A DNA stretch of 64,000 nucleotides from Promethearchaeota archaeon (GTDB taxonomy: Archaea; Asgardarchaeota; Lokiarchaeia; Sigyniarchaeales; SOKP01), in contig JAHPZA010000005.1 of assembly GCA_019058445.1 (NCBI GenBank), positions 1 through 64,000 of the forward strand, in the 5' to 3' direction. The position numbers and the translations under genes are program-made. Numbering within the stretch: position 1 is the stretch's first letter; each line of letters starts with the position of its first letter. Under the pieces are notes generated by a model. It saw nothing but the letters and a program-made list of their open reading frames with translations, was not told the DNA's origin and ran no database searches. Shown here one piece after another: positions 58,287-63,775 of this stretch.

Positions 58287-58553
58287 TTAGGAGCTTACCA
58301 ATCGAAATAATAAGGCGCCATGAGGAATGTAGAATTCGTCTTTTCTCTTTATCACGACGGTATGAAAATACTCCGCCAGTCCGAGAAACCCTCTTATCAC
58401 ACTCTCGTCTTCTTCAAATTTAAATGTTATATTTGATATTGCCGATCCTGTATTAAAGGCGACCTTCTCATAAACACGCTCATCGATTAAGGGAATTTTT
58501 AATTCATTGACGATTTCATAAACTCGCTTAATAAATAATTCTTTTTTAGCCAT
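58287..58553 (-). CDS. Hypothetical protein
   Basis: 88-aa ORF with ATG start and plausible composition. Confidence 0.65.
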   Translation of the reverse strand: MAKKELFIKRVYEIVNELKIPLIDERVYEKVAFNTGSAISNITFKFEEDESVIRGFLGLAEYFHTVVIKRKDEFYIPHGALLFRLVSS

Positions 58554-58828: not shown

Positions 58829-59974
58829 TTAATTAATAGAAATGGGGTACTTTCCATGTTTTAAAATCACTTTAAAGATTGTTGGGATCGAAGCTAACAT
58901 GTGCATAAAGGAGGGAAAACCTTCTGATATACCCATAAGAAAGTTATCTCCAGGAGCGGCATCCTTCAACATTTCCAATGTCTTTTTCTTTACTGCCTTT
59001 TGACCTTGAAGGCATACAGGTTCAGGGAAGTTAGCCCAAATTACTTTATCTTTCCATGACTCTTTAGCTTCATTAATGGGAAGATTTCCTACAGGAGGTG
59101 CCGTGAAACTCTCAATGGCATCAATTCTTGTTTTCGCAATAAGCTCCTTTAAAGCTTTTAACTCGCCATCCATATGTACAACATATAGTTTATCATGTTT
59201 ATGGAAGATATCTGCTACTTCATTATAGAAAGGCAGACTATATTTCTCGAAAAATTTTGGACTAGTAACTAGAGAAGTAACGTTATCAGGACCCCAAATT
59301 ACTTCACAAGGGGATTCTGCTGCAATTTTATAAACCTCCAGTTCTTTTTTATAAATAATTTTGTAAAGCTCATCAAATTCCTTTTGATGCATATAATAAT
59401 CTAAAGCCAATCTTTTCGGTCCCATAAGCATAATTAATGATTGAAGAGGAGATTTTGGAACAAAGGAGGGGACAATCCCAAAATCACCGATAAACATTTG
59501 AAATTCCTCAATTTCATCATAAAAAGGGCTATATTCAGTATCCTCTATAATATATTTTAATACTTCATAATCCTCAAGAGTTTTGAGGAAATATCCATCT
59601 TCTGGAAACCAAGGAAGGTTCGCAGAAAGGTCAAGACTTTCCATTTTTGCTTTTACTGAAAGTTTCCCTCTTGGAGTACTTAAACTTCCGGTTATATCGT
59701 GAGGGGTATTAAATGCTATCATAATATCTACCGGTGACCAAGAAGTTTTATTCCCATAATGATGGTTAATATCCATCTTAGTATTTGGACAAGAAACTTT
59801 ATGTGTCTGAACTGCCAAAGCAGCATGTAATCCAAGCCCTTTGTCTAATAGTTTTCTCCATGGTTGATAAAGAGCTAATCCAGCTAAATATTTTGTTTCC
59901 ACATAGATAGTAAATGGTATCATATCGGGAGGTTCTCGTCGAAGAACTGCCATTATTCTTTCTTTTGCATTCAA
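58829..59974 (-). CDS. URO-D family methyltransferase (second copy)
   Basis: KERI...PDMIP, DNV, SPKFF, HMDG. Likely TTG start at 59974 overlaps the corrinoid gene stop (TTGA), with a GAGGTGG RBS. Confidence 0.85.
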   Translation of the reverse strand: MNAKERIMAVLRREPPDMIPFTIYVETKYLAGLALYQPWRKLLDKGLGLHAALAVQTHKVSCPNTKMDINHHYGNKTSWSPVDIMIAFNTPHDITGSLSTPRGKLSVKAKMESLDLSANLPWFPEDGYFLKTLEDYEVLKYIIEDTEYSPFYDEIEEFQMFIGDFGIVPSFVPKSPLQSLIMLMGPKRLALDYYMHQKEFDELYKIIYKKELEVYKIAAESPCEVIWGPDNVTSLVTSPKFFEKYSLPFYNEVADIFHKHDKLYVVHMDGELKALKELIAKTRIDAIESFTAPPVGNLPINEAKESWKDKVIWANFPEPVCLQGQKAVKKKTLEMLKDAAPGDNFLMGISEGFPSFMHMLASIPTIFKVILKHGKYPISIN

Positions 59975-60618
59975 CTTTTTACCCACCTCATACAAATATT
60001 AACACCATCCATCGCATTTTTCGCATAAGCATCTGCTCCGATATCCTTTATAAACTCTTCAGTGACAGGAGCGCCACCAACAATAACTTTTACTTCTTTT
60101 CTTAGATTTGCCTCTACTAAAGCTTTCATTAAATTACCAACTTCAGGTAAAGTCATAGAGACTAAAGCGGATATGGCAACTATATCTGGATTTTCAGCGC
60201 GTATAGCTTCAATAAACCTTTCTGAAGACACATCAACACCTAAATCAATGACCTCAAAACCTTCTGCTTCTAAAAAAGTTATAACCACATTCTTTCCTAT
60301 ATCGTGTAGATCTCCTTTCCCTGTTCCGATTATAACTTTGGCAAGAGCATTTTTATCACCTTTTTCTTTAATTTGAGGTTCAAGTATTTTCATTGTCTCT
60401 TTTATAATTTCACCAGCCATGATAAGTTCAGGAATGAAGAATTCTTCAGCTTCAAATTTATCACTGATAATATTTGCTGCTTTTGCGATTCCTTCTTGAA
60501 TTATCTTATATGGATGCATTCCTTTAGCAATCGCATCTTCACATACTTTCTTGGCCATTTCAATATCCATCTCGATTACCGCTTTTATATACTGACTTAT
60601 ACTATTTTCTTCTGTCAT
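59971..60618 (-). CDS. Corrinoid (B12-binding) methyltransferase protein, MtbC/MtaC-like
   Basis: Cap domain FFIPELIMAGE; DLHDIGKN (Co-ligating His), DLGVDV, VIVGGAPV. Confidence 0.95.
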   Translation of the reverse strand: MTEENSISQYIKAVIEMDIEMAKKVCEDAIAKGMHPYKIIQEGIAKAANIISDKFEAEEFFIPELIMAGEIIKETMKILEPQIKEKGDKNALAKVIIGTGKGDLHDIGKNVVITFLEAEGFEVIDLGVDVSSERFIEAIRAENPDIVAISALVSMTLPEVGNLMKALVEANLRKEVKVIVGGAPVTEEFIKDIGADAYAKNAMDGVNICMRWVKS

Positions 60619-60849: not shown

Positions 60850-61623
60850 GTGGTTTCAAAGGAACAGAAGAAGTTAAATCGTGTGATGAATTTTCTAAAA
60901 AAAGGTTTATCCGGTTTAGCAGATGAGTTAGAAGGTACAATTAAAGGAATAAATGAATTCTTAGACTCCCTTCAAAAAGCTCAAAAAGATTTAAAGGGAG
61001 TCGAATCTGAAGAAGAAGTTGTTACTGTAAGCACTTCCTCTACGAAAATTGCTACTCCCAGTCCTGAGACTGCAAAAACTGCAGCTGCAAGTACGTTATT
61101 TAGTTTATTGAGCGGAACTGGAGGTGAAGCAGCTCCAGGCTCCGCACCAGTAGCAGCTGCTGCTTCAGGTGGACTTCCTAAAACGCCTTCAGGCGGTGGA
61201 CCTCCTAAAGCACCTTCAGGCGGTGGGCCTCCAAAGGCACCTCCAGGCGGTGGGCCTCCAAAGGCACCTTCAGGCGGTGGGCCTCCAAAGGCACCATCAG
61301 GCGGTGGGCCTCCAAAGGCACCATCAGGCGGTGGACCTCCAAAGGCACCATCAGGCGGTGGGCCTCCAAAGGCACCATCAAGTGGGTTACCTCCGGCTCC
61401 AAAACTTCCTCCTGCCCCTGGAACAGGCGCCCCTCCTACAGCACCAGGTGGCGTGAAACCGCCAGCTTTTGCAAAAAGAGCAGGACCTCCTGGAGCTCCA
61501 GGAGCACCCCCCGGTGGAGCAGCCCCAGCAGTAGCAGCTCAACCTGGCGGAGGTTTGAGTTCACTTAGAGATGAAATGTTGGATGAATTAAATCGTCTAA
61601 AGAAAATTATGCGTGGAGAATAA
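60850..61623 (+). CDS. Coiled-coil + Pro/Gly-rich repeat + C-terminal WH2-like helix protein (candidate actin regulator)
   Basis: N-terminal heptad helix; 7 x P[SP]GGGPPKA; LPPAPKLPPAP; C-terminal SLRDEMLDELNRLKKI. GAGGA RBS and GTG start. Confidence 0.8.
   Translation: MVSKEQKKLNRVMNFLKKGLSGLADELEGTIKGINEFLDSLQKAQKDLKGVESEEEVVTVSTSSTKIATPSPETAKTAAASTLFSLLSGTGGEAAPGSAPVAAAASGGLPKTPSGGGPPKAPSGGGPPKAPPGGGPPKAPSGGGPPKAPSGGGPPKAPSGGGPPKAPSGGGPPKAPSSGLPPAPKLPPAPGTGAPPTAPGGVKPPAFAKRAGPPGAPGAPPGGAAPAVAAQPGGGLSSLRDEMLDELNRLKKIMRGE
61186..61380 (+). repeat. In-frame 27-bp coding minisatellite, 7 copies
   Basis: CC[TA][TC]CAGGCGGTGG[GA]CCTCC[AT]AA[GA]GCA units at 61186, 61213, 61240, 61267, 61294, 61321 and 61348. 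Confidence 0.95.
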
Positions 61624-61790
61624 GAGTTTTAACAAAACATTACTTTCTTTTCCTATATCTGTTCAATTTTATTGTTACAATATATAAAGTATTTTAAATT
61701 CAATTTCTTTGTATAAAATTAAATAGAAAAATATGAATTATATAATCAAAGTACATTTTTATTTTAAATAGATTTAAGTGATTAAATTTT

Positions 61791-62909
61791 ATGGGTAATC
61801 TTACTGTTGTTTTAGATATTGGTCAATTTTCGTCTAAAGCGGGTTTCGCAGGTGAAGATTTCCCATCTCAGGTATTTTTTACCATTGTTGGTAAACCTAA
61901 ATATCATAATCTTGATGCGCAATATGGTGGAGGAGCCGAACAGGAAGTTTATGTAGGAGAGGAGATTCAATCTCTTGGACTTTATAAAATTACCTCACCA
62001 ATTAATAAAGGAAAAATAATTGATTGGAGTTATTTCGAAAAGATTTTGGACTATATTTTTTATAATTTAAGAGTTGATCATACTTTAGTAAACGTATTAT
62101 TTGCTATTCATCCATTGTTTCCTAAAAAAGATCTCCAAAAAATATTCGAATTGTTTTTAGAGCATTATCAATGTATGGGATTTTATCCTGTTTTAGACTC
62201 TTTATGTACTCTTTATTCTGGTGGATTTCAAACAGGATTAATTATAGAAATTGGAGATAGTAGTACAAGAATCGTACCTATTTATAATGGATATAAAATA
62301 GATCATGCAATTAAAATTTTAGAAATTGGTGGAAGAGCTCTTACCCGGTATATGGAAACTCTTTTAGGATCCATAGGGTTTGCTTCTGATTCATCAATAA
62401 GGAGAGAATTAGTTCGAGTTTTAAAAGAAAAAGCATGTTTTGTTTCTTTGGATTATAAGGAAGATCTGAAAAGAAGTGAAGAATATACCAAACAATATTC
62501 ATTACCCGATGGGGCGACTATTTCTTTATCCAAAGAAAGATTCATTCTTCCGGAAGCTCTATTCAATCCCTCCTTAATAAATTTAGAACATTATTCATTA
62601 CCAGAAGCAATAATGGATGTAATTGAATTATGTGATGTTGATATTAGGGCTGAATTGTTAAATAATATCTTTTTGTCAGGAGGTTCTTCTATGTTTCCAA
62701 ATCTTAAAAATAGAATATATCAGGAGCTTGAACTCTTGATGGCAAGAAAAAAAATAGACAATCAAGGTATAAAAATTATTGCCCCAAGAGAGAGAACTTT
62801 TTCGGTGTGGGTTGGAGGATCCATTTTATCGATGATCCCGGAATTTTCTGACAATTGGATCACTCGGGCGAAATATTATAAGGACGGCATTCCAGAAGAC
62901 TTTATATGA
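61791..62909 (+). CDS. Actin-family protein (divergent actin-related protein)
   Basis: VVLDIG..SKAGFAGEDFP, YVGEE, TGLIIEIGD, LKEKACFV, YSLPDG, ERFILPEALFNP, CDVDIR, LSGGSSMFP, SVWVGGSIL. Confidence 0.97.
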   Translation: MGNLTVVLDIGQFSSKAGFAGEDFPSQVFFTIVGKPKYHNLDAQYGGGAEQEVYVGEEIQSLGLYKITSPINKGKIIDWSYFEKILDYIFYNLRVDHTLVNVLFAIHPLFPKKDLQKIFELFLEHYQCMGFYPVLDSLCTLYSGGFQTGLIIEIGDSSTRIVPIYNGYKIDHAIKILEIGGRALTRYMETLLGSIGFASDSSIRRELVRVLKEKACFVSLDYKEDLKRSEEYTKQYSLPDGATISLSKERFILPEALFNPSLINLEHYSLPEAIMDVIELCDVDIRAELLNNIFLSGGSSMFPNLKNRIYQELELLMARKKIDNQGIKIIAPRERTFSVWVGGSILSMIPEFSDNWITRAKYYKDGIPEDFI

Positions 62910-63032: not shown

Positions 63033-63401
63033 TTGGTGTGTTATTTGGAAGAACTTCCTGAAAAAAGTTTCAATAAACAAAGTATGATGAGTAAATACGA
63101 TTTATTTAACAAAATCAAGGGAATTAATACTCCTGTAAAAAGCGATATTTTGATTGCTCTCTTGGATGGAGAATATCATTCTGAGACAGAATTAATCAGA
63201 TTAGCAAAAAAAAGGGGTACAAATTATCTTGGAGCAGTAACTTTAGGAACCATGGTCAATTCATTGAATCATTTATTAAAAAGTAATTATGTAGAGAAAC
63301 AATTTGTAAATGGTGAAATGAATTATAAAATCTCCGATAATTATGTAGGCCTTACGCGAGCAGCATATAATAACTGGCAGCATAAAGCATTTAAATATTA
63401 A
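63033..63401 (+). CDS. Winged-helix-like protein, paralogue 1
   Basis: KSDILIALLDGEYHSETELI...YVEK...YKIS; the real start may be ATG at about 63084. Confidence 0.7.
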   Translation: MVCYLEELPEKSFNKQSMMSKYDLFNKIKGINTPVKSDILIALLDGEYHSETELIRLAKKRGTNYLGAVTLGTMVNSLNHLLKSNYVEKQFVNGEMNYKISDNYVGLTRAAYNNWQHKAFKY

Positions 63402-63406
63402 GGGGA

Positions 63407-63775
63407 ATGATTTTGGATAAATTAGGAAAAGAATTTAATATTTCTACACTTATGAAAATCGTCTTTAAACCAGAATATTCCAATATGTTCAATAAGATCA
63501 CTAATATAAATGCTCCTGTAAAAAATGACATCCTAATAACTCTTTTAGATGGGAAATACCATTCTCAAACCGAAATTATAAGACTCATTAAAAAAAAACA
63601 TCAATATCTCGGTCCAATAACTCTTACGACCATGATAGAATCTTTGAATAGTCGCACAAAAAATAATTACTTAGTAAAAAAGATTGTAAATGGAAGAATT
63701 TACTATAAAATCTCTGATAATTATGTTGGCCTCACAAAGGCTGCTTTTACAAAATTCAGGTTTGCAAATATTTGA
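63407..63775 (+). CDS. Winged-helix-like protein, paralogue 2
   Basis: KNDILITLLDGKYHSQTEII...YYKISDNYVGLTKAA; clearly similar to the upstream gene. Confidence 0.7.
   Translation: MILDKLGKEFNISTLMKIVFKPEYSNMFNKITNINAPVKNDILITLLDGKYHSQTEIIRLIKKKHQYLGPITLTTMIESLNSRTKNNYLVKKIVNGRIYYKISDNYVGLTKAAFTKFRFANI

Follow-up and report, generated by a model that had tools for sequence, protein, structure and literature searches.

The regulation of Lokiactin in Asgard archaea is at present accounted for mainly by profilins and gelsolins, according to PMC13716822. These regulators (the gelsolins including the form 1DGelX) are Asgard-specific and are proposed Lokiactin effectors, and the «domain X» of 1DGelX is an uncharacterised predicted coiled coil (PMC7444086, PMC9433394 and PMC13716822). 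Another described system is that of Pyrobaculum, in which arcadin-2 is encoded beside crenactin. The core of arcadin-2 is followed by an unstructured and non-conserved linker, then by a C-terminal helix that is small and conserved; this helix alone mediates the binding, in the hydrophobic groove of crenactin (PMC5173319). The present analysis concerns the gene of P0001, a protein here called the adaptor, located at 60850..61623 on the plus strand of a stretch of 64,000 nucleotides of Promethearchaeota archaeon DNA (contig JAHPZA010000005.1, positions 1 to 64,000; called the window below), together with the actin-related paralog P0002 which follows it.

P0001 resembles arcadin-2 in that a conserved C-terminal helix stands behind an unstructured linker and, in taxonomic family f1 only, beside an actin homologue. 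It differs from arcadin-2 in three respects: (i) no sequence relation between the two is shown; (ii) the arm of P0001 is a long proline-rich repeat; (iii) its family is Asgard-wide. Like the known Asgard actin regulators it is Asgard-specific, and like «domain X» it holds an uncharacterised predicted coiled coil, but it has neither a gelsolin nor a profilin domain. By sequence comparison, P0001 is a member of a real, previously undescribed protein family which is found in most Asgard archaea; no description of it was found in the literature searched on Asgard actin regulators, within the available parts of these texts. This Asgard-specific and mostly single-copy adaptor, with its presumably multivalent proline arm and its invariant helix, is a candidate for connecting the cytoskeleton with membranes, small GTPases or coats.

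The end helix, its carriers and the layout of P0001

A profile limited to the C-terminal helix of the family (the end helix) was run on 151 evenly drawn Asgard genomes. It is matched in 127 genomes, i.e., in 69 of the 73 high-quality ones and in 21 of the 29 taxonomic families, mostly with one match per genome. Only 14 of 1.84 billion protein representatives match the end-helix profile (E≤0.001). The invariant core is LRxEMLxELxRL, which becomes L-R/K-x-E-M-L/M-x-E-L/I-x-R/K-L/I when all contexts are aligned. In P0001, a Gly run and the putative docking helix occupy residues 233-257 (61546..61620, plus strand), with the core LRDEMLDELNRLKKIM at 61564-61611. This C-terminal block is nearly invariant among about 120 homologues. 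The end helix itself (residues 236-254) is 19 residues long and strongly amphipathic in the AlphaFold2 model; LKKI corresponds to residues 250-253 and is followed by MRGE, the protein ending in ...RLKKIMRGE.

The part of the protein that carries the helix is far from uniform. A soluble head as in P0001 is found in families f1, f2, f5 (genomes of about 1.4 Mb), f14 and f23. In other Asgard families the head consists of one or many transmembrane segments and a coiled coil, followed by a proline-rich arm and the same end helix; the neighbours of this membrane-anchored form look like housekeeping genes by sequence (ribose-5-phosphate isomerase-like, tRNA endonuclease-like, PIN/KH ATPase-like) and give no functional lead. 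Two to three tandem copies of the end helix are present in P0128, P0130 and P0132. P0130 has a Ras-family domain, then copies of the helix flanking a PPPPP run. In P0128 a further domain follows the end helix; its Atlas model has a likeness to longin and TRAPP folds, to be taken as a lead only. A 555-residue Sec23/24-like protein of a relative (L191:1566-3230, minus strand) has a zinc finger, a trunk and a beta-sandwich, then the helix motif LKSEMLNELNRLK. One to three copies are joined to a Cys4 zinc-ribbon-like domain in P0128, P0130, P0132 and the proteins encoded at L192:380-832 and L194:396-812; small proteins of family f1 also pair the end helix with such a domain. When longer proteins with the end helix were searched for with a word index, only the family itself was present among the first 120 matches listed, and no new fusion was obtained.

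Two observations were made on other proteins of the same genome. An otherwise unrelated open reading frame (ORF) at G000:C10:30083-30700 (minus strand) contains, close to the C-terminus, part of the helix motif (ALRQEMLGELDRLRSV). A fusion of the helix with gelsolin was considered and rejected, the four gelsolin-domain ORFs of the genome having no helix motif, either by eye or with a strict pattern scan.

The reading frame of P0001 starts with GTG. The residues VSKEQKK after the start are kept in the homologues, which mostly start with ATG. More than 235 homologues were collected, every one of them unnamed and from Asgard metagenome-assembled genomes; since the N-terminal and C-terminal blocks are common to them, P0001 is not a chance frame within the repeat described below. 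The adaptor is present in 35 of 41 relatives.

The AlphaFold2 model was built on a homologue alignment of 20 sequences. Two helices have a predicted local distance difference test (pLDDT) of about 90, namely that of residues 4-52 and the end helix. Between them are a weak helix (72-87) and a disordered stretch (88-235). The first helix (60859..61005, plus strand) is a single helix of 49 residues, is conserved across the order and, as modelled, is probably a coiled coil. The short motif AASTLFSLLSG (residues 79-89; 61084..61116, plus strand) coincides in part with the weak helix. Within the 20 aligned sequences A79, A80, L83 and L87 never vary and F84 hardly does; AAxxLFxLL is kept across the order, and the counterparts in other taxonomic families are SLFDFLEG and DLWTLLTG.

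The arm (residues 95-232; 61132..61545, plus strand) was delimited from Tandem Repeats Finder, composition and modelled disorder. Pro, Gly and Ala make up 76% of its residues. It contains a coding minisatellite with a period of 27 bp (61189-61380), i.e., 7.1 copies of the unit PSGGGPPKA with 95% matches, and this repeat raises the local G+C up to 0.58 vs. about 0.30 around it. The arm looks length-variable since close homologues are of unequal length (210-267 residues). A proline motif, LPPAPKLPPAP (residues 180-190; 61387..61419, plus strand), shows little or no variation across the order at L180, P181, P184 and P187. The original prediction, made from the letters of the window alone, had described a 257-residue protein with an N-terminal coiled coil, a Pro/Gly-rich region and a terminal amphipathic helix; the layout of helical head, proline-rich arm and terminal helix is recovered both in the model and in the composition of the arm.

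Candidate partners of the end helix

P0001 may be regarded as an Asgard-only adaptor in which a variable head is joined by a flexible proline-rich arm to an almost invariant C-terminal docking helix. The long N-terminal helix, if it is a coiled coil, would make the protein multivalent. S88, a protein of 88 residues that co-occurs with the soluble head and is usually encoded beside it, would be the likely partner of this head. The arm holds the short conserved motifs, its length changing through the minisatellite. The end helix would turn one broad hydrophobic face toward a strongly conserved partner. This partner could be the hydrophobic groove of actin-family proteins, i.e., that of canonical Lokiactin and perhaps that of the neighbouring paralog, so that the adaptor would act on actin, by recruitment or regulation, in the way that arcadin-2 acts on crenactin. 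Docking of the end helix onto actin in the manner of arcadin-2 is put forward tentatively, as somewhat short of probable.

Besides the arcadin-2 precedent and the portable, tandem and Pro-flanked habit of the helix, the following results were counted for it. First, Lokiactin is 88-99% identical across the order and orthologues of the paralog are only 47-95% identical; the conservation of Lokiactin matches the invariance of the end helix, which was counted for actin as the partner. Second, the synteny with the actin paralog within f1 was counted for a link with actin. In the 80 closest species-level genomes, 78 loci leave room downstream of the adaptor, and in 75 of these the paralog lies 3' of it, on the same strand and 0.13-2 kb away. 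It is directly adjacent in 27 of the 75 linked loci; in the other 48 a gene stands in between and the distance is 0.85-2 kb, this gene being, where annotated or clustered, that of a PIG-L-family deacetylase.

Several points weigh against this explanation or are neutral. (i) The adjacency of adaptor and paralog is kept only within family f1, i.e., the synteny stops at the family boundary. In f2, the distance between the adaptor and the paralog orthologue (47-55% identical) amounts to 44, 71 and 100 kb in three genomes; three f4 genomes encode the adaptor, and their best match to the paralog is a canonical actin, at 41%; and no actin gene is found within about 6 kb of 16 adaptor loci of other families. 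The pairing across Asgard genomes which the original prediction put forward for comparison is thus upheld in f1 and lost in f2, f4 and the other families. (ii) Other neighbouring genes are also kept in f1, so the pairing may be plain conservation of local gene order. (iii) Two f1 genomes have neither adaptor nor paralog. One of them keeps S88 and the genes of its far side in the usual place, with different ORFs at the expected site of the adaptor block; in the second, S88 stands at the contig end. This joint loss fits a functional coupling but could be explained equally well by a single deletion of adjacent genes. (iv) In genome G010, S88 is intact and the adaptor was not found, thus S88 is not strictly dependent on the adaptor. 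(v) Families f19 and f22 have Lokiactin-like actins and no end helix; since helix-less families still have actins, the phyletic pattern does not discriminate between partners. (vi) The carriers with a Ras-like GTPase, a longin-like domain, a Sec23/24-like protein or a membrane anchor fit a trafficking hub equally well. (vii) In the co-immunoprecipitation of L. ossiferum Lokiactin, the main texts name profilin, gelsolins and an ARF GTPase and do not name the adaptor (PMC13716822, available part). (viii) Loki profilins are reported not to bind polyproline (PMC8410842), which weakens a role of the arm in feeding profilin. One published account describes polyproline motifs as frequent among the proteins of Asgard archaea.

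The explanation that comes next is a trafficking or small-GTPase adaptor, which is possible although on the doubtful side. The end helix would dock on a small GTPase, a longin/roadblock platform, a coat component or an MIT-type domain; the proline-rich arm would be comparable to the scaffold arms of TANGO1 or Sec31 type, and the neighbouring actin paralog would be incidental. The carriers speak for it: the helix occurs with the Ras-family domain of P0130, before the longin/TRAPP-like model of P0128 (with the reserve made above), within the Sec23/24-like protein and as the terminus of coiled-coil proteins with transmembrane segments, and outside f1 the adaptor has no conserved cytoskeletal neighbour. 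However, no candidate hub was identified, and the same facts fit actin, for eukaryotic actin-binding helices are portable, tandem and Pro-flanked and are attached to GTPase-regulated or membrane proteins.

An MIT-type partner is also disfavoured by the comparison with the MIM1 motif of ESCRT-III, whose consensus, located at the C-terminus, is (D/E)xxLxxRLxxL(K/R). In the best register of the end helix, MxxELxxLK, an invariant Glu occupies the position of the MIM1 Arg, and the MIM1/MIT reading was rejected. The ESCRT-III tail of the genome ends in ...EEIEKLKKELSE; its likeness to the end helix is loose, with a misfit of both the register and the key Arg, and it is absent from the matches of the helix profile at E≤0.001.

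A stronger version of the actin reading is unlikely. According to it, the end helix would be a true actin-groove module, i.e., a counterpart or forerunner of the WH2, VASP-FAB and formin-DAD helices. The family would then be the missing Asgard factor of actin assembly or tethering, anchored through S88 or transmembrane segments, reused on GTPases and coats, and in partnership with the paralog in f1.

More improbable still is a helix without any partner in trans, which would bind to itself, to the N-terminal helix or to S88, either as an autoinhibition or in the self-assembly of a scaffold or condensate. The strongly amphipathic character of the 19 residues, the probable coiled coil of the head and the existence of tandem copies are in its favour. 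On the contrary, the same helix is borne by membrane-anchored, GTPase and Sec23/24-like forms that have neither the N-terminal helix nor S88, and an invariant helix on heads that vary from family to family speaks for a conserved partner outside the protein.

Should actin be the partner, as tentatively preferred here, modular helix-based recruitment of actin would predate eukaryotes; if it is not, the family would mark a hub of Asgard cell organisation.

Comparison with WH2, Ena/VASP and WASP

The original prediction had gone further and had seen in the two genes a candidate nucleation-promoting factor (NPF) placed beside an actin-related protein (Arp), the first gene being WASP/VASP-like with a WH2-like C-terminus. 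WH2, as found in WASP, WAVE, WIP and thymosin beta-4, resembles the end helix in being short, portable and amphipathic and in having a hydrophobic triad at i, i+1 and i+4; the helix of the P0001 family, too, often follows a proline-rich region and is sometimes tandem. However, WH2 is made of a helix, a linker and an extended LKK[TV], whereas P0001 has one predicted continuous helix running through LKKI. No match to Pfam WH2 (PF02205) was obtained at E≤10 with either the whole of P0001 or its last 43 residues, with the reserve that the HMMER filters drop most matches above about 0.1, so that a very weak one could have been missed. The last 40 residues, taken as a profile, were also compared, at E≤10, with 177,635 sequences of solved structures; no WH2 or VASP chain was matched, short motifs being hard to detect in this way, and the sole match was a non-significant one to a coiled-coil repeat of a C-type lectin.

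The stretch aligned with LKKI reads LKKI, LKKL, LKRL, LKKY, LKKF, IKEI, LREI, LKAI or LQQI across the family. In other words, «KK» is replaced by KE, KR, RE, KT, KA or QQ, and the next residue is hydrophobic. The likeness to LKK appears incidental, because the invariant core is LRxEMLxELxRL, KK varies and LKKI lies within the predicted helix. The WH2-like C-terminus was not borne out, for these reasons and for the negative Pfam and solved-structure comparisons.

Ena/VASP proteins have an EVH1 domain, a proline-rich region and EVH2, the latter with motifs binding G-actin and F-actin and a tetramerising coiled coil. P0001 is comparable by its oligomerising helix (presumed in its case), its proline-rich arm and an amphipathic basic helix after a Gly run; this end helix may resemble the F-actin-binding motif of VASP. 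The differences are that P0001 has no EVH1, that its long helix is N-terminal whereas the coiled coil of VASP is C-terminal, and that its prolines are placed in GPPKAP units without long proline runs. Concerning EVH1, no Pfam family was found on P0001, and the first 60 residues gave only sub-threshold helical matches. There is no CRIB in P0001, nor an acidic Trp-containing Arp2/3-binding tail of WASP type at its C-terminus. P0001 is thus, as judged from its sequence, no recognisable relative of WH2, VASP or WASP proteins. Our best guess is that docking on actin, if it occurs, is a mechanistic resemblance to WH2 and VASP and not a matter of common descent.

The spacer between the two genes (61624..61790, plus strand) is AT-rich and 167 bp long, the genes being co-oriented; the distance of about 170 bp to a co-oriented actin-family gene given by the original prediction was accurate, the Pfam Actin score of that gene being 286 bits. 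A T-tract is located at 61640-61653 and an AT-rich TATA-like box at 61756-61770. In most of about 20 orthologous spacers a TTTCTTTT-type tract is found 15-30 nt past the stop of the adaptor, and in many of them a common AT-rich box stands 5' of the actin start. This conserved T-tract and AT-rich box, to which terminator and promoter roles may be assigned, suggest separate transcripts, and adaptor and paralog are probably not co-transcribed. The pair is a synteny specific to f1 with putative separate transcription signals, and no conserved two-gene module.

That a WASP/VASP-like NPF activates or feeds the neighbouring Arp, as a two-gene nucleation module prefiguring WASP-Arp2/3, is therefore very improbable: the Ena/VASP-like and WASP-like layout, the co-oriented paralog in the immediate vicinity and the linkage kept in f1 are outweighed by the absence of WH2, EVH1, CRIB and acidic Trp tail, by an unconserved LKK, by the adaptors of f4 without a paralog and those of f2 far from theirs, and by the intervening gene of 48 out of 75 linked loci together with the terminator-like and promoter-like signals. 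The layout and the adjacency stand and an actin-linked role is possible; the WASP/VASP identity and the dedicated pair are not supported. The picture of a «proto-WASP-Arp2/3 operon» is corrected in this sense, the pairing with the paralog being local.

S88, the actin-related paralog and other neighbours

S88 is an orphan alpha/beta protein of 88 residues (58290..58553, minus strand) that was delineated by clustering the flanking ORFs and by alignment. In 63 of the 80 close-relative loci, less than 600 bp (mostly 250-490 bp) separate it from the adaptor. The two genes are also neighbours in f3, f5, f14, f21 and f23, their relative orientation being divergent, convergent or tandem. S88 is a more widely conserved neighbour of the adaptor than the actin paralog (six taxonomic families). 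It is mostly not found with the membrane-anchored form (1 of 26 in f9, 0 of 3 in f15, 0 of 5 in f18 and 0 of 7 in f24). As S88 tracks the soluble head and not the end helix, it may work with the N-terminal helix. Its AlphaFold2 model has a pLDDT of 84.5. No Pfam family matches S88, and comparison of its fold with the PDB by Foldseek gave nothing at E≤0.001; the best Z of VIA-align is 4.0. The best Atlas matches have a template modelling score (TM) of 0.60-0.61 by query, to parts of much larger DUF5305 proteins. S88 could be given neither a fold nor a family from these comparisons.

Upstream of the adaptor, the segment 57017-60618 holds two URO-D-like methyltransferase genes and one gene of a B12-binding corrinoid protein. 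Two of these three genes, URO-D-like and B12-binding corrinoid by Pfam (58829..60618, minus strand), separate S88 from the adaptor, an arrangement restricted to this lineage; it seems that two genes of a methyltransferase system were inserted here. The order of S88, adaptor and paralog, with the spacings of the Asgard locus L116, is also found on a contig (L117, DATKTW010000083.1) labelled «Candidatus Nanopelagicaceae bacterium»; this contig is probably mis-binned or mislabelled.

P0002 (61791..62909, plus strand; 372 residues; Pfam Actin PF00022) covers positions 6-401 of the 410 of the Actin profile and is thus a full-length actin-family protein. Its best 60 matches among solved structures are all actins (the best at an E of about 1e-84), so that on sequence actin is its nearest relative among the solved matches listed. 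The label «Asgard actin-related protein» fits the usage in PMC9834061. The genome has six actin-family loci, of which two are canonical (441 and 424 bits); P0002 ranks fourth and is 40-41% identical to the two canonical actins.

Gln137 and His161 are actin residues with assigned roles. At the positions aligned with them P0002 has Asp and Arg, respectively. Within the paralog clade, the Gln137 position is Asp, replaced by Gly or Ser in the sister families, and Arg is found clade-wide at the His161 position. These replacements suggest that the ATP hydrolysis coupled to polymerisation is altered or lost.

Two of the six actin-family loci (G000:C10:653495-654577 and G000:C9:593898-595019) contain in-frame TAA stops and may be pseudogenes or assembly errors. 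Just 3' of P0002 are two tandem paralogous ORFs of 122 residues (63033-63401 and 63407-63775, plus strand) with no Pfam family; an ORF related to them follows the paralog in four other loci.

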